From positions 1 through 13,461 of the forward strand of contig JBBITJ010000021.1 of the NCBI GenBank assembly GCA_037440825.1: a stretch of DNA of 13,461 bases, given 5' to 3'. Shown here one piece after another: positions 1,336 to 8,295 of this stretch. The number at the start of each line of letters is the position of its first letter. Position 1 is the first letter of the stretch. This DNA comes from Candidatus Micrarchaeota archaeon (GTDB lineage: Archaea; Micrarchaeota; Micrarchaeia; Anstonellales; Bilamarchaeaceae). The translations under genes were made by a program, and so were the position numbers. The notes beneath the pieces are model-generated. The model did not search any database and was not told the DNA's origin. It saw only the letters and a list, made by a program, of their open reading frames with translations.

Positions 1336-2880
1336 TCAGCCGAGATAGAGTTTTCCGAATTCCTTCTTTCCGTCCGAAGTGCAGTTTATGCCGAGGCGCC
1401 TGAGCGCGGTCGCGTCTTCCGGGGAGAGCATGTGCGTAGTGTGCAGTTCGGAGGATTGCAACGCCTCCAGTTTCGCGAACGCTTTTGCCGCGTTCTCGTC
1501 CCCCGCGGCGCTCACCGCGAGCGCGATCAGTATTTCAGGGACGTTGAGGTTCTCGGAATTCTCCGAATATATCTTCCTCCGCAATTTCCTCACCTGGGAA
1601 ACCGCCTCGCCCCACAGCACGTGCTTTCTGTCATGGACGAAAGCAAGCTTCTTTAGAGCGCTGATTATCGCGGCTGATTCCGCGTGCATGAGCGGGCTGT
1701 TATGCTCGCTCACAGTCTCGCCGTTCGGGAGCATGAGGGCGCACCCTATGCTGAGCCCCCTGTGCCCGGGAGCCCGTTTCGCGGCGTCGCGTGCGAGCGC
1801 GACCACAGGGCGTTCGTCCAACCTTATGCCCTGTCTTTTCATGAGCTTCTCCACGCGCAGCGACGCGTCCTCTGTTCCGGTTCCTGCGAGGAAATCCGCG
1901 CGGTAGCCGAAATAGCGCCGGATTATCTCCTGCCTCGCGGCGCGCTCGCAGAGCTCCAAATCCACTATCCCGCGGCTCACGAAATTCAGCCCCATGTCAG
2001 TGGGGGAATGGTAGCTGTGCATGAAATTGCCCGGAGAAATGATCTTTTTAATGATGTTGCTTATGATGGCGAAGCTTGCGACGTCGCGGTTGTAATTGAC
2101 AGCCGAAACCTTGTACGCTTTCAAGTGGTACGGATCAATCAGGTTGTAGTCCCCTATGTCGGCAGTCGCGGCCTCGTACGCCGCGTTTATCGGGCTTTCA
2201 AGAGGGAGGTTCCACACCGGGAAGCTCTCGAACTTCGCATATCCGGAATCATCTCCTTTCAGGTAATCCTGATAGACCATCGTGAGGCAGGTCGCCATCT
2301 TTCCTGAATTCGGGCCTGCGCCCGTCACTATAACGATGGACTTCTCCGTCCTGATGAACGGCTTCTTGCCGAAGCCGCGCGAGGACGCTATCGCCTTGAG
2401 GTTGTTTGGGTATCCGGAAATGAGGTCGCGGTAATAGACGTCGTACCCCTGCTTCCTCATGAACGCGCCGAATTCCTTGGCCGCAGGCTCGCCGGAGAAC
2501 AGGTTGATCACCACGTTCGGGACCTTGAAGCCGTACGCCTTTATGGAATCCAGCATCTTGAGCGAGAAATCCCAGTACGAGATGCCCAACGCGCCCATTT
2601 TTTTCCCGGATTGGAGGTCGCGTGCGCTCACGCAGAAGAGGAATTCGATAGGCCTCTTGTGCGCTAGCCTCTTTATCACGTTCATCTTCGCGTCCATGCG
2701 GTAGCCGGGAAGGACCTTCGCGGCGTGGTAGTCGTAAAGCAGCTTGCCGCCGAATTCCAGGTAGAGCTTGTCGAATTTCGAGGCGCGCTCTATGATGGCG
2801 TCAGATTGCGCCTTCACGTACGCCTCGTTGTTGAATCCGAATTTTCCAAGGTGGGAGAAGCGGTTTTCCAGCATGCGCAT
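1336..2880 (-). CDS. DUF1846 / UPF0371 family protein
   Basis: Recognisable family motifs: GFNNEAY, KLYLEFGGKL..DYHA..VLPG, GPNSGKMATCL, GYAKFESFPVWNLPL..P.NAAYEAATAD..D.N.IDP.HL.AY, VNYNRD, Y.SPTDMG.N, EIIRRY. The start could be ATG 2874. Confidence 0.9.
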   Translation of the reverse strand: MRMLENRFSHLGKFGFNNEAYVKAQSDAIIERASKFDKLYLEFGGKLLYDYHAAKVLPGYRMDAKMNVIKRLAHKRPIEFLFCVSARDLQSGKKMGALGISYWDFSLKMLDSIKAYGFKVPNVVINLFSGEPAAKEFGAFMRKQGYDVYYRDLISGYPNNLKAIASSRGFGKKPFIRTEKSIVIVTGAGPNSGKMATCLTMVYQDYLKGDDSGYAKFESFPVWNLPLESPINAAYEAATADIGDYNLIDPYHLKAYKVSAVNYNRDVASFAIISNIIKKIISPGNFMHSYHSPTDMGLNFVSRGIVDLELCERAARQEIIRRYFGYRADFLAGTGTEDASLRVEKLMKRQGIRLDERPVVALARDAAKRAPGHRGLSIGCALMLPNGETVSEHNSPLMHAESAAIISALKKLAFVHDRKHVLWGEAVSQVRKLRRKIYSENSENLNVPEILIALAVSAAGDENAAKAFAKLEALQSSELHTTHMLSPEDATALRRLGINCTSDGKKEFGKLYLG

Positions 2881-2894
2881 ACTTATGCTTCCAC

Positions 2895-2913
2895 ATTAAA
2901 AAAGTGCGCTTTT
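2895..2913. promoter_or_regulatory. Compact divergent promoter (ATTAAAAA / TTTTTAAT) overlapped by an inverted repeat AAAAG-tgcg-CTTTT
   Basis: Only 45 bp separate the divergent DUF1846 and dinB starts. The single AT-rich box (2895-2903) lies about 22 nt before ATG 2926. The inverted repeat is at 2900-2913. Confidence 0.5.
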
Positions 2914-2925
2914 CCTAATCACTGT

Positions 2926-4014
2926 ATGGGCAGGATAGTGCTTCACATGGACCTGGATTACTTCTTCGCGCAGGTCGAGGAGTCCGATAAACCGGAGTAC
3001 CTGGGAAGACCGGTCGTGGTGTGCATATACTCTGGAAGGGACGCCACCAGCGGCGTGGTCAGTACTTCCAATTACGAGGCCCGCAGGTACGGGGTGAAAT
3101 CCGGGCTGCCTATCCGAACCGCGATGAGGAAGCTGAAGGGCACTGATGCGGCATTCATACCTGCGAGGCACGAGAGGTACGCGGAGGTCTCGCAAAAAGT
3201 GATGGAGACGCTTGCGAGATACGGGGAGAAATTCGAGTACGTCAGCATAGACGAAGGAGTTCTGGAAATTACCAAGGCGAGCGACGACGATTACGGGAAG
3301 GCGGAGCGGATCGCGCTTGCAGCGAAGCAGGAGATACGGGAAAAAACCGGGCTCACGTGCTCGATCGGCGTGGGGCCCAACCGCCTCATAGCCAAGATAG
3401 CGAGCGATTTCAGGAAGCCGGACGGGCTCACCGTCGTGAAGCCCGATGAGGTAGAAGGGTTCCTCGCGGAAATGGATGTAGGGAAAATACCGGGCGTGGG
3501 CGCCAAGACCCGTGAGGTGCTGAACGCGGCCGGGATAAGGACGATCGCGCAACTCAGGGACGCGGAGCCCGGATTCCTCGCAGAGGCATTCGGAAAAAAG
3601 ACTGGCGGATGGCTGATAAACGCTGCACGAGGCATAGATGAGAGCGAGGTCGGCGCGCAGCAAGGAGAGCAGAAGCAGATAAGCCGCATAATGACGCTGA
3701 AGAGGGACACGCGGGATGTTGATGAGATAATGGATGCTATGGAAGAGCTCATCCGGGATATAGGGAAGGAAGTGCTGGAGAACAAGCTCACATTCCGGGC
3801 TGTCGGTGCGTCGGTGGTGGACGAGACGCTCAGGACGCATTCCAAAAGCAGGACGCTCCCCCGCCCCGCCGAAGATGCGGCTCAGATCGGGCGCGCTGCG
3901 AGGGAGCTTTTCGCTGCAATCGCGGCGGAGACGAAAACGGCTTTCAGGCGCGCGGGCGTGAAAGTGGAGGGGCTGGCTAGCGCCAAGGGGCAGAAGACGC
4001 TGGGCGAGTACTGA
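2926..4014 (+). CDS. dinB: DNA polymerase IV, Y-family (DinB/Dbh/Dpo4 type), 362 aa
   Basis: HMDLDYFFAQVEE, NYEARRYGVKSG, SIDE, TCSIGVGPNRLIAKIASDFRKPDG, HhH motif IPGVG, little-finger domain and C-terminal PIP-like QKTLGEY. True start is ATG 2926, not 2725. Confidence 0.96.
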   Translation: MGRIVLHMDLDYFFAQVEESDKPEYLGRPVVVCIYSGRDATSGVVSTSNYEARRYGVKSGLPIRTAMRKLKGTDAAFIPARHERYAEVSQKVMETLARYGEKFEYVSIDEGVLEITKASDDDYGKAERIALAAKQEIREKTGLTCSIGVGPNRLIAKIASDFRKPDGLTVVKPDEVEGFLAEMDVGKIPGVGAKTREVLNAAGIRTIAQLRDAEPGFLAEAFGKKTGGWLINAARGIDESEVGAQQGEQKQISRIMTLKRDTRDVDEIMDAMEELIRDIGKEVLENKLTFRAVGASVVDETLRTHSKSRTLPRPAEDAAQIGRAARELFAAIAAETKTAFRRAGVKVEGLASAKGQKTLGEY

Positions 4015-4020
4015 ACAAGG

Positions 4021-4061
4021 TTTAAAAATTGTTATTAACATTTATTGAAAAATTATTAATT
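4021..4061 (+). promoter_or_regulatory. AT-rich promoter of the rhodanese gene with two palindromes
   Basis: TTTAAAAA at 4021-4028, then TGTTA-T-TAACA (4030-4040) and AATTA-T-TAATT (4051-4061). Confidence 0.55.
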
Positions 4062-4600: not shown

Positions 4601-5866
4601 CTACCTTCTGGCGAACCTGTGCCTTCTCGGGCGGTTCATGTGCGAAGGCCTCGGGTCTCCCCCGTATCCGCCGTGGTATGGCCTTCCGCTCCCTCTGTGC
4701 GGTCCGTGCCTGTCCCTGTGCCAGCCGCCGTGGCCGCCGGGTCCGCGGGAACCAGCGTACGGATTGTAGGGGCCGACTTTCGGCCTGAATCCGGCACGCA
4801 CCGGCCTTCCGAAGAACGGGTTAGCCTCCACGAAAGTTATCGCCTTCCCGGTGGCGCCCATCCTTCCCGTCCTCCCTATGCGGTGGATGTGGGTGTGGTG
4901 GTCCATCGCCTCGTCGTAGTTGACCACGAGCGAGATGTTGTCCACGTGCAGCCCCCTTGCCGCGACGTCGGTCGCTACCAGTATGTCGGATTTGCCCTCT
5001 TTGAAGCCATGTATTATCCGCTCCCTCCTGTTCTGCGCCACGTCGCCGTGTATGTAGGATGAGTCGATGCCGGTCTCGCGCAGGCGTTTGCCGACGTATT
5101 CCGCGGCCCTCTGCGTCGCCACGAATATGATTATCTTCCCTGTAGGATCAGCCTGCTTCTGGCTCTTTATTATTTCCACGAGCTTGTCGAACTTCTGCGG
5201 CCTCTCGATCTTAATTTTCTCCTCCGCGATCTCCGGCGGCTTCTCCAGCTCGCCCACTTCCACGGTCTCGTACGACTTCATGTACTTTGACGCGATCCTG
5301 AGCACGTCGTCGTTTATCGTCGCGGAGAAGAGTTGGACCTTGCGCGCGTAGGACGTGTTGGACACGATTTTGTCCACATCCTCCACGAAGCCCATCTCGA
5401 ACATCTTGTCCGCCTCGTCGAGCACGACCAAATCGTATTCGTTGAGGTCTATTGTCCCCCTTTCGAAGAGGTCCAAAAGGCGCCCCGGCGTGGCCACGAG
5501 TATGTCCACTCCGTTGTAGAGCTGCTTTATCTGGGCGTCTATGTTCTGCCCGCCGTACACACATATCACGCGGTAGGGGTAGAACTTCCCGAGCGACCTG
5601 AGCTCGTTCATGATCTGGATGGCGAGCTCGCGCACGGGCGCGATTATGAGCGCCTTCCTTGCCTTGTTCGCTGCAAGAAGCTCGTATATGCCTATTCCGA
5701 ACGCGCAGGTCTTTCCGGTGCCGGTCTTGCTCCTCGCTATCACCTCCTTTCCGGAGACGATGAGCGGGATCACTTTTTCCTGCACTTCGGTGGGGCTCGT
5801 GAACCCCATGGACATCAATCCTTCTAGGGTATTCTGGGAGAGGCCCAAATCCTTGAATTCTACTAT
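4601..5866 (-). CDS. DEAD-box ATP-dependent RNA helicase (start uncertain: ATA 5866 favoured, GTG 5932 alternative)
   Basis: Full motif set: FKDLGL/GF..PTEVQ (Q), SKTGTGKT (I), PVRELA (Ia), TPGRL (Ib), DEAD (II), SAT (III), IIFV (IV), TDVAARGL (V), HRIGRTGR (VI). Basic Gly/Arg/His-rich tail. Confidence 0.95.
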   Translation of the reverse strand: MVEFKDLGLSQNTLEGLMSMGFTSPTEVQEKVIPLIVSGKEVIARSKTGTGKTCAFGIGIYELLAANKARKALIIAPVRELAIQIMNELRSLGKFYPYRVICVYGGQNIDAQIKQLYNGVDILVATPGRLLDLFERGTIDLNEYDLVVLDEADKMFEMGFVEDVDKIVSNTSYARKVQLFSATINDDVLRIASKYMKSYETVEVGELEKPPEIAEEKIKIERPQKFDKLVEIIKSQKQADPTGKIIIFVATQRAAEYVGKRLRETGIDSSYIHGDVAQNRRERIIHGFKEGKSDILVATDVAARGLHVDNISLVVNYDEAMDHHTHIHRIGRTGRMGATGKAITFVEANPFFGRPVRAGFRPKVGPYNPYAGSRGPGGHGGWHRDRHGPHRGSGRPYHGGYGGDPRPSHMNRPRRHRFARR

Positions 5867-6026
5867 GCTAACACCTTTTTCCTTGTTTTGCCTATTGCCT
5901 GTTTTCCGACTTTCCGGTCCGAAAGGACGCACGCTAAGGTAGAATGCGGTTGATTTTAGCGTGTCTCAAACTTATTCTGGCGCGCGAGGCAAAAAGTCAG
6001 CTCGCTCACTAATCGATTTCAAATAC

Positions 6027-6060
6027 ACTCCTTTACGCAATAGGAGTTTATAAGCTTTCG
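6027..6060 (-). promoter_or_regulatory. BRE-TATA promoter for the helicase with adjacent inverted repeat
   Basis: The minus strand reads CGAAAG-CTTATAAA (6060-6047), a typical BRE+TATA. ACTCCT-N9-AGGAGT (6027-6047) lies immediately downstream. Confidence 0.65.
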
Positions 6061-6230
6061 CTATAGCGCGAACGCTACTGCTTGTTCTCCCCGCCCCATA
6101 GAATGAACAGTCTCTCCTCCTTGTCCGAGATGGTGTCGTTGAACGCGCCTGTGAGCTTGACGAATACCTGAAACGGTTTATAACGAGGTGGGAATGGTGG
6201 AAGAAGGGATCGCGGGAACATGTCAGAAAC

Positions 6231-6246
6231 GAGGAACATTTATAAA
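6231..6246 (+). promoter_or_regulatory. TATA promoter of the r-protein operon
   Basis: Purine-rich GAGGAACA followed by TTTATAAA (6239-6246). Predicted TSS near 6268-6271. A second TATA-like TTTATAAC is at 6177-6184. Confidence 0.6.
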
Positions 6247-6277
6247 TCCTTTTCCCATAAATGATAGAACTACGCTT

Positions 6278-6417
6278 TCAGGGCTACTGCCGTAAGGACT
6301 TGTTCTTGATGCAGTTGCCTGACGTTGCGACACTCCTTCCGCAAGGAAGGAATCGGGACGATGGGAAAGGCATACCGTTACTATGCGATTCCAGGGCGAC
6401 AGTGCACGGTGTATACT
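6278..6417 (+). ncRNA. Candidate structured 5' leader RNA of the S17-spc operon (family unrecognised)
   Basis: Four consecutive hand-folded hairpins fill the space between the TATA box and the S17 SD. They include the perfect UCCUUCC-GCAA-GGAAGGA GNRA hairpin at 6334-6351. Confidence 0.5.
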
Positions 6418-6433
6418 CAGACAAGGTGAATGA

Positions 6434-6736
6434 ATGACAGAGAAATGCGATGACAAGAACTGCTATGTCCACTCCGGACTCAAGGTGAGGGGCGGAAGGA
6501 TCGAAGGAGTGGTCGTGAGTGACAAGGGCAAGAGGACCATAATCGTGGAAAAGAACACGACCTCCATCATGCCCAAGTACAACAGGATTTCCAAGAACGT
6601 CAGCCGCGTGCCTGCCCACAACCCGCCGTGCATAAACGCCAAAACGGGAGACAAGGTGCGCATAGGCGAGACCAAGAAGATAAGCAAGACCAAGGCATGG
6701 ACTGTGCTCGAAATCTTGAAGGGCGACAAGCAGTAA
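6434..6736 (+). CDS. rps17: 30S ribosomal protein uS17 (archaeal type)
   Basis: CDDKNCYVHSGLKVRG, GVVVSDK..RTIIVE, PKYNR, AHNPPCI, GDKVRIGETKKISKTK. GGTG SD 5 nt upstream. Confidence 0.97.
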   Translation: MTEKCDDKNCYVHSGLKVRGGRIEGVVVSDKGKRTIIVEKNTTSIMPKYNRISKNVSRVPAHNPPCINAKTGDKVRIGETKKISKTKAWTVLEILKGDKQ

Positions 6737-7580: not shown

Positions 7581-7593
7581 CCAAGGTGAAATG

Positions 7594-8295
7594 ATGGCTA
7601 AAAAAGGAGGAACATACCACACTAAAAGGCTCGCGATTCCGAAAGCTATTCCGGTGAGCGACAAGAAGGCCAAGAAATTCATGATGACCACTTCTCCGGG
7701 AACGCACCCGAAGAAGCAGGCCATACCGCTCGGAGTGCTCATAAGAGACGTGCTCGGAGTGACCAAGAGCGCGGCTGAGACCAAGAAGGTGCTCAACGCG
7801 AAGCAGGTGCTCGTGGACGGAAAGGTGAGGAAGGACGAGAGGTTCCCGGTAGGACTCATGGACTCGGTCACTTTCGCGAACGCGAAGAAGTCCTACAGAA
7901 TTATAGTAAATAAGAAGGGTCAGCTCATTCCGGTAGAGACCAAAGACGCCGCCAGGAAGATCTGCAAGGTAGTCGGCAAGCGCACCGTGAAGGGCGGCAA
8001 GTTCAACATAACGCTCCACGACGGAAGGAACATAGCGACCGACGACAAGGTCAACGTCGGGGACAGCGTGATAATCAGCGTCCCGGACCAGAAGATCGCC
8101 AAGGTGCTCAAGTTCCAGGACGGCGCGAAGTGCCTCATCACGGAAGGGAAGCACGCGGGCACGGTCGCGAAGCTCGAAAGCATAATCGCGAGGCAGGAAG
8201 GGAACTGGCCAGAGGCCAGGCTCAAGGGCGCAGAGGAATTCATCACCGTGGCCAGGTATCTGCTCGTCGTTGATGATTCGTACGAAGGTGCATGA
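7594..8295 (+). CDS. rps4e: 30S ribosomal protein eS4
   Basis: HTKRLAIP, SPGTHP, IPLGVLIRDVL, VLVDGKVRKDERFPVGLMD, LHDGRNI, GKHAG. Start at ATG 7594 or 7591. Confidence 0.97.
   Translation: MAKKGGTYHTKRLAIPKAIPVSDKKAKKFMMTTSPGTHPKKQAIPLGVLIRDVLGVTKSAAETKKVLNAKQVLVDGKVRKDERFPVGLMDSVTFANAKKSYRIIVNKKGQLIPVETKDAARKICKVVGKRTVKGGKFNITLHDGRNIATDDKVNVGDSVIISVPDQKIAKVLKFQDGAKCLITEGKHAGTVAKLESIIARQEGNWPEARLKGAEEFITVARYLLVVDDSYEGA

Follow-up and report, generated by a model that had tools for sequence, protein, structure and literature searches.

A conserved, covarying RNA leader ahead of the S17-led ribosomal-protein operon in a family of Micrarchaeota, probably a new control element

In Escherichia coli, the operator of the spc operon is bound by uS8, lies at the start of L5 and mimics the uS8 site of 16S ribosomal RNA (rRNA). 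Among archaea, the classical example of translational feedback is the leader of the Methanococcus L1 operon, in which uL1 binds an rRNA-like site on the mRNA. We analyzed a 13,461-nucleotide (nt) window from a Candidatus Micrarchaeota archaeon (contig JBBITJ010000021.1 of assembly GCA_037440825.1; the window is this whole stretch of DNA), in which the gene for the ribosomal protein uS17 is preceded by a structured leader of about 160 nt. A preliminary description, made from the letters alone, had placed a multi-hairpin RNA at the head of the S17-led operon. That assignment largely holds: the leader lies directly before S17 and is conserved, covarying, non-coding and on the plus strand. Judging from sequence comparisons, the synthesis of ribosomal proteins is probably controlled here by a new element. 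Eckert and Weinberg 2020 (PMC7247131) count no more than a handful of known archaeal cis-regulatory RNAs, and the candidates described in the text of that article precede L4 in Archaeoglobi, eL15 in Euryarchaeota, S15 in Halobacteria and S15 in Methanomicrobia.

As with the bacterial spc operator, the structure belongs to the mRNA of an operon that encodes L14, L24, L5, S14, S8, L6, L18, S5, L30, L15 and SecY. Unlike that operator, with its location at the L5 start and its mimicry of 16S rRNA, the Micrarchaeota element heads a transcript that begins with S17, and its likeness to rRNA is without statistical support. The Methanococcus L1 leader differs from the S17 leader in operon, protein and structure. 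The leaders of PMC7247131 are likewise conserved, covarying structures before archaeal ribosomal-protein genes that were found comparatively and whose ligands were inferred, but in the text of that article they differ in gene, lineage (none is from DPANN archaea) and structure, and neither S17 (uS17/rpsQ) nor L14 nor DPANN is named there. Full-text literature searches, judged by their result listings, returned no leader for archaeal S17/spc, Micrarchaeota or DPANN. Rfam 15 has no match in the whole window at gathering thresholds and none at E ≤ 10 in positions 5850–6550 on either strand, so the preliminary suspicion that no known family is involved stands. The element would represent a new structural class within the leaders of ribosomal-protein operons. 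The leader region carries these features:

6239–6246, plus strand: TATA-like box TTTATAAA, read from the sequence; presumed promoter of the S17 operon.
6270–6275, plus strand: CUACGC, a conserved 5′ word; predicted transcript start.
6278–6322, plus strand: hairpin H1, UCAG-GGC-ACUGC / GCAGU-GCC-CUGA with an apical AAGGA-CUUG-UUCUU hairpin.
6323–6360, plus strand: hairpin H2, the core motif, made of helix P1, an internal loop, helix P2 and an apical loop.
6323–6330 / 6353–6360, plus strand: H2 helix P1, CGUUGCGA/UCGGGACG.
6331–6333 opposite 6352, plus strand: H2 internal loop, CAC opposite A.
6334–6340 / 6345–6351, plus strand: H2 helix P2, UCCUUCC/GGAAGGA.
6341–6344, plus strand: H2 apical loop, GCAA.
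6364–6392, plus strand: hairpin H3, GGAA..GCAUA / UAUGC..UUCC, with the loop CCGUUAC at 6375–6381.
6401–6417, plus strand: hairpin H4 of the preliminary description, not counted in the conserved element.
6425–6428, plus strand: Shine-Dalgarno site GGUG, read from the sequence, 5 nt before the S17 ATG.
6434–6736, plus strand: uS17 gene, the first gene of the S17-to-SecY operon (Pfam Ribosomal_S17, E = 4.2e-22).

RNAfold of positions 6270–6433 on the plus strand recovers H1, H2 and H3 as they had been drawn by hand, in the minimum free energy (MFE) structure as well as the centroid, and the pairs flanking the H2 internal loop have a base-pair probability of 0.98. These three hairpins are retained, with covariation in relatives. 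H4 is not part of the conserved element. The MFE structure replaces it by a weak hairpin in which CAC (6405–6407) pairs with the GUG of the Shine-Dalgarno site; no counterpart was seen by eye in the related genome G004, and RNAalifold of six leaders from the genus places no helix there. Two tetraloop words had also been singled out as rRNA-like GNRA motifs, but GCAA caps H2 in the window only (G004 and G005 carry other loops) and the predicted fold does not place GUAA (6292–6295) in a hairpin loop. The MFE of the leader is −54.9 kcal/mol versus −47.3 ± 4.2 kcal/mol for dinucleotide shuffles (z = −1.81), with z = −1.60 for the minus strand. The leader thus folds below the shuffled mean, but 10 of 200 shuffles fold as well, and for these reasons the energy alone does not rise beyond chance.

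Comparison with relatives, all of them metagenome-assembled genomes, carries the case. S17 was located in 57 of 61 genomes, and 50 upstream loci were read. A blastn search of the leader against 60 relatives matches only G004 (75% over 173 nt) and G005 (75% over 78 nt), the other matches being short and confined to the TATA region. In all eight genomes of the genus, a TATA box precedes a leader that is roughly 160–290 nt long. H2 is present in every one, farther upstream in G003; H1 can be traced in seven, and an H3-type hairpin with the loop CCGUUAC in five, a loop word that also occurs in G016 outside the genus. RNAalifold on a MAFFT alignment of six genus leaders recovers H1 and the base of H2 unaided. 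In this alignment 87.5% of the cells are paired versus 75.5% after shuffling, a value that none of 500 shuffles reaches; both sides change in 10 of 19 pairs, and slid controls are 27–47% paired. In H1 both sides change in five of seven predicted pairs (85.7% of cells paired), the lower stem of H2 P1 covaries within the genus, and in H3 both sides change in all six pairs (six sequences; 78% paired versus 47% shuffled, 0 of 500). The covariation lifts H1–H3 above chance, and the pattern is consistent despite the small number of related sequences.

Outside the genus, many leaders carry the words CGAACAC and GAUUCG on either side of a variable hairpin. RNAalifold of this family form yields a 4-base-pair (bp) P1 (CGAA/UUCG), CAC opposite A, and a P2 of 6–10 bp whose sequence differs in every genus. 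When 12 of these cores are aligned with MAFFT, 92.2% of the cells are paired versus 78.6% after shuffling (0 of 500 shuffles); both sides change in 8 of 13 pairs, a number reached by 5 of 500 shuffles, and slid controls are 18–46% paired. A covariance model, R1, built from five of these 12 sequences recovers the other seven hand-picked loci at E ≤ 0.0042 in 97 kilobases (kb) and later matched three loci that had not been picked (G034, G141 and the public locus L175). A broader model, R2, was built from 16 sequences.

Together with the window, 24 further H2-type instances, all upstream of S17, were anchored on the internal loop. The pair below the loop is A-U in 25/25 and the pair above is C-G in 22 and U-A in three. 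The loop itself reads CAC opposite A in 17 instances, and AAC opposite AAA or AAG in four; in the remaining four it is UAC, which faces A, C, AAA or AAG. Counted outward from the loop, the first four positions of P1 and the first seven of P2 are 80–100% paired, with up to six standard pair types at each. The core pairs include 20 G-U versus one A-C, from which it follows that the plus strand is the functional one. Over the whole table 349 of 411 cells are paired versus 31–47% in slid controls, totals that are biased upward because a script chose the 3′ anchors by maximal pairing.

It is probable, though not proven, that the window's H2 and the family core are one motif, since they share position and plan and are bridged by intermediate forms. 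The loop of G016 is UAC/AAG and occurs together with the CCGUUAC word. In the metagenome locus L187 (positions 270–360), a genus-type copy (GCGA[CAC]U...A[AA]UCGC) and a family-type copy (AAA[CAC]C...G[A]UUU) stand in tandem upstream of S17. MAFFT did not bring the 3′ strands of the long and short forms into one alignment.

By inspection, the motif occurs in 8/8 genomes of the genus, in 15 of the 26 further genomes of its family (f1; 12 of 20 genera) and in none of 16 genomes from eleven other families of the order. In loci that lack the motif, Rpp29 or SUI1 mostly abuts S17 with no spacer, as is usual in archaea. In G008, G014, G010 and G030, a new TATA box and the motif occupy a spacer of 130–220 nt between Rpp29 and S17. 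Only 2 nt separate the end of the motif from the Shine-Dalgarno site in G025. Scans with the two models undercount, because the filters are strict and the models narrow. R1 matched 11 of 151 genomes of the order (f1 9/73, f6 2/42, other families 0/35), with 12 matches, one per genome except for a single genome with two, and six of the seven best lie upstream of S17. R2 gave five matches among 151 genomes of the phylum, all of them in f1 (5/26) and upstream of S17, and none in 124 genomes from 19 other families. The three R1 matches in f6 (24–27 bits) have no S17 match in their loci. One R1 match was set aside: that in G064 (30.4 bits) follows a ScpB-like gene with no S17 nearby and reads CAAAAGC rather than CGAACAC, and given its different location and reading it is probably a false positive. 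In a metagenome scan, the motif was found in 3 of 80 loci, the genus type solely as the one copy in L187. A blastn search of positions 6230–6440 against the source genome returns only the locus itself, other matches having E ≥ 0.3, and the leader is therefore single-copy. As far as sampled, the element appears restricted to one family of Micrarchaeota.

The predicted promoter accompanies the motif. A TATA-like match (TTTA[TA]A[AT]) lies upstream of it in 24/24 leaders examined, L038 having been dropped before that step. In seven aligned genus leaders (the window and six others), a conserved CUA(G)CGC word begins 31 nt after the start of the TATA box; CUACGC has the same spacing in G007, G001 and G002, G004 reads CUAGCGC, and G029 and G033 have CUACGC as well. 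Since the TATA-like box sits at a fixed spacing from this word, transcription may plausibly start near 6270. A bacterial promoter and terminator scan of the window was uninformative, the host being an archaeon.

The element lies between the TATA-like box and the Shine-Dalgarno site and ATG of S17, in the window as in the 24 other instances, a position that fits a ribosomal-protein leader. By analogy with known leaders, a feedback operator would be the most economical reading: positions ~6270–6433 would be a structured 5′ untranslated leader, and the internal loop of H2 would be the site at which one of the operon's own protein products docks. When this protein exceeds the free rRNA, it would bind the leader and reduce the operon's output, in the manner of classical ribosomal-protein feedback. 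We regard the chances of this proposal as evenly balanced. Elsewhere in the family, nine leaders from other genera have a hairpin after the motif that shares two bases with P1 and outcompetes it (top pair of P1 below 0.5) in 9/24 predicted ensembles. Such competition would suit a protein-stabilized switch or attenuation. The mechanism may differ between genera, because the window's genus has neither the competing hairpin nor U-tracts. A role of the loop as an anti-Shine-Dalgarno sequence was considered, since its word CACC could pair with the GGUG of the Shine-Dalgarno site, and was rejected, as the probability of this pairing exceeds 0.1 in only one of 24 leaders.

Several results weigh against feedback through H2. 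The folding energy by itself is within chance. The covariation is based on 6–25 related sequences, and the shuffle tests overstate significance because these are few and related; in the table of 25 instances, moreover, the anchors were picked by a pairing-maximizing script. Neither R1 nor R2 detects the genus form of H2. The element is absent from 11 of 26 other genomes of the family, in which Rpp29 or SUI1 abuts or lies near S17, and is therefore dispensable. In the predicted ensemble the window's Shine-Dalgarno site is paired with a probability of 0.26, that is, mostly open, and so there is no obvious sequestering switch. The mimicry of rRNA that the preliminary description had envisaged fell short in three separate tests, each negative or without clear support. 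R1 on 5S, 16S and three 23S genes scores at best 9.1 bits. Two-block identity of 25 cores with rRNA does not exceed reversed controls (19 versus 22 for the window), and a model (R3) of a 16S hairpin described below gives H2 only 8.0–9.3 bits, in 3 of 26 loci that do not include the window.

Conservation and covariation would be equally expected of a cis-acting structure with another role, such as 5′ protection, mRNA stability, processing, attenuation at a U-tract or binding of a non-ribosomal factor. This is a possibility we take seriously, while thinking it unlikely. It would sit well with the rRNA-mimicry tests, which found none, with the predominance of the post-motif hairpin over P1 in 9/24 ensembles, which would suit a switch, and with the U4–U5 tract in that hairpin in G008, G012, G015, G017 and G031; poly-U also follows the archaeal S15 leaders in the text of PMC7247131. 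However, in the window and the rest of its genus H2 is not followed by a U-tract, and a position solely before a ribosomal-protein operon is that of feedback leaders. An independent small non-coding RNA gene of ~130 nt, with its own promoter and ending or being cut before S17, is improbable. Its compact multi-hairpin form and strong TATA box would be expected of such a gene, as would the T6 tract and the second Shine-Dalgarno/ATG that separate the structure from S17 in G004, but in the window there is no T-tract between H3 and the S17 start and no second TATA-like box was seen between the structure and S17. The 2 nt left before the Shine-Dalgarno site in G025, the lack of an Rfam match and the location of an RNase P RNA candidate and of Rpp29 elsewhere in the genome also argue against it.

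Quite improbable, too, is the absence of any RNA function, with promoter-proximal similarity among close relatives and chance hairpins producing the pattern. Such an origin would account for a folding energy within chance and for blastn matches in only 2 of 60 relatives, and relatedness does inflate the shuffle tests. It is harder to reconcile with the many pairs that change on both sides in several helices, with slid controls that fall to 18–47% paired, with the retention of the motif in 12 of 20 family genera while the hairpin between the conserved words is replaced, and with whole-genome matches that are unique and fixed in position. Coding can be dismissed almost entirely. A 58-codon open reading frame (ORF) does exist at 6261–6437 and overlaps the S17 start by ATGA, but its ATG follows the TATA box by only 15 nt and precedes the likely transcript start. 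Pfam does not match it, each of the three frames contains stops in the homologous regions of G005 and G002, the frame is broken in G004, and alignment gaps are not multiples of three. We give equally little credence to a copy of a mobile hairpin repeat, as blastn finds a single copy in the source genome and R1 and R2 find one site per genome in all but one.

If the feedback reading is correct, the ligand may be sought among the products of the operon. The organism's own 16S rRNA contains, at nt 363–392, a hairpin with the architecture of H2, CCUUCG[CAA]UGCAC-GCAA-GUGUG[A]CGAGGG, which covaries among four 16S genes of the family. The window's H2 shares with it the order of helix, loop opposite A, helix and GCAA loop, but the third base of the loop differs (CAA versus CAC) and conservation of H2 does not extend to its apical part. 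For uS8 there is bacterial precedent as a ligand, and the organism's own 16S uS8 site bears a loose resemblance to the leader. The 16S hairpin at 363–392 is presumably helix 15. This helix (h15) is bound by bS16, and eS4 has a similar role in eukaryotic subunits, according to PMC6007441. As a ligand, eS4 is only weakly indicated, at best on a par with uS17 (encoded by the first gene) and uS8, because R3 matches only 3/26 loci weakly and misses the window. A 23S hairpin, UUCCGAUACCUU...AAUCGGA (G017 23S ~1216–1262), resembles G003, G007 and G001 by eye. In the two-block test on it only G007 and G001 reach 23/32 versus 20 reversed, and G003 matched the 5′ block only. A pattern scan of rRNA for NAC loops was too noisy to use.

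The H2 loop itself suggests a known module. In C-loops, which are described as RNA-protein binding sites in PMC2952876 and PMC3273805, two cytosines flank an exposed adenine within an asymmetric internal loop. CAC opposite a single A (a 3 × 1 loop) fits this form in 17 of the 25 instances, the window included. Unlike a C-loop, eight instances have AAC or UAC, and in six the opposite strand has 3 nt. The assignment is thus suggestive, the base triples that define a C-loop being three-dimensional. Three other identities were rejected. The word CGAACAC also occurs in the organism's own 5S rRNA, but a 5S-like loop is not tenable, since those bases of the leader pair in a covarying helix. By eye, there is no second 3-nt bulge 4 bp away, as in a bulge-helix-bulge, and there are no tandem G-A pairs, as in a kink-turn.

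The loop of H3, CCGUUAC (6375–6381), is perfectly complementary to a word of the organism's own 16S rRNA, GUAACGG (GGGUAACGGCC; contig C27, gene nt ~255–265), and the complementarity extends to 8 nt in G002 and G016. We take this 16S word to be the apical loop of helix 11, a helix bound by uS17. We speculate that the H3 loop could kiss naked, S17-free 16S rRNA, with the leader sensing ribosome assembly by RNA-RNA contact. If true, translation of the S17 operon would respond directly to how much unassembled rRNA is available. We consider it very improbable. A given 7-mer occurs in a 1.5-kb RNA by chance in about 9% of cases, and the complementarity may therefore be coincidence.

The window is contig C21 of a genome of 875 kb that is 95.6% complete. 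Downstream of S17, Pfam identifies on the plus strand L14, L24, S4e, L5, S14, S8, L6, L32e, L19e, L18, S5, L30, L15 and SecY, in this order. Two genes on either side of the leader are relevant to its setting:

7591–8295, plus strand: eS4 gene, a member of the S17 operon.
4601–5932, opposite direction to S17: DEAD-box helicase gene, with a spacer of ~500 nt before the S17 operon.

A gene for a Y-family DNA polymerase with IMS domains lies farther upstream (2725–4014, plus strand). It is overlapped by a 381-codon ORF on the minus strand (2896–4041) that has no Pfam match and is probably spurious. Elsewhere in the genome, a candidate for RNase P RNA at C9:19113–19344 scores 67.9 bits (E = 3.5e-19), below the 84-bit cut-off of RF00373, and Rpp29 is encoded at C3:50140–50385, away from S17. 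The leader was also considered as the archaeal RNase P RNA, because S17 commonly has the Rpp29 gene before it; this was rejected, as the sole RF00373 match is on contig C9 and Rpp29 on contig C3, not at the leader. No 23S rRNA was found in the source assembly.

Other observations concern the relatives. In the last ~70 nt before S17 in L032 (G004), a duplicated Shine-Dalgarno site and ATG open a 12-codon upstream ORF; a T6 tract follows this ORF, between the structured leader and the S17 start. The 190-nt spacer between SUI1 and S17 in L041 (G020) has no motif and instead contains two imperfect direct repeats of ~26 nt (GGAAAAA.GTTTCCGAC.GA.TTGAA). In L053 (G015), a direct repeat of ~44 nt (GATCGATGCAAAAATGTATTTTTTGCAGTTGTGAACGAAGTTCAC) occurs twice just before the promoter, ~200–290 nt upstream of S17. 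In L076 (G008), L077 (G015) and L266 (G015), matches to 23S rRNA span 4.8 kb and 4.6 kb versus 2.9 kb in G017, and the 16S match of G015 spans 2.6 kb; the rRNA genes of these Micrarchaeota may thus contain introns or large insertions. A group II intron domain is matched at 60–221 of L069 (G103, family f6; 43.5 bits), where it adjoins a tRNA gene.

We know of no precedent for feedback on an archaeal-type operon with eS4, eL32 and eL19. There is none among the archaeal leaders in the text of PMC7247131. The conserved core, with two helices and the CAC/A loop within ~40 nt, is tractable for binding and structural work, and the identity of its ligand could show how an operon of this type is fed back. 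These archaea have genomes under 1 Mb, yet this one has kept a covarying leader of ~160 nt.

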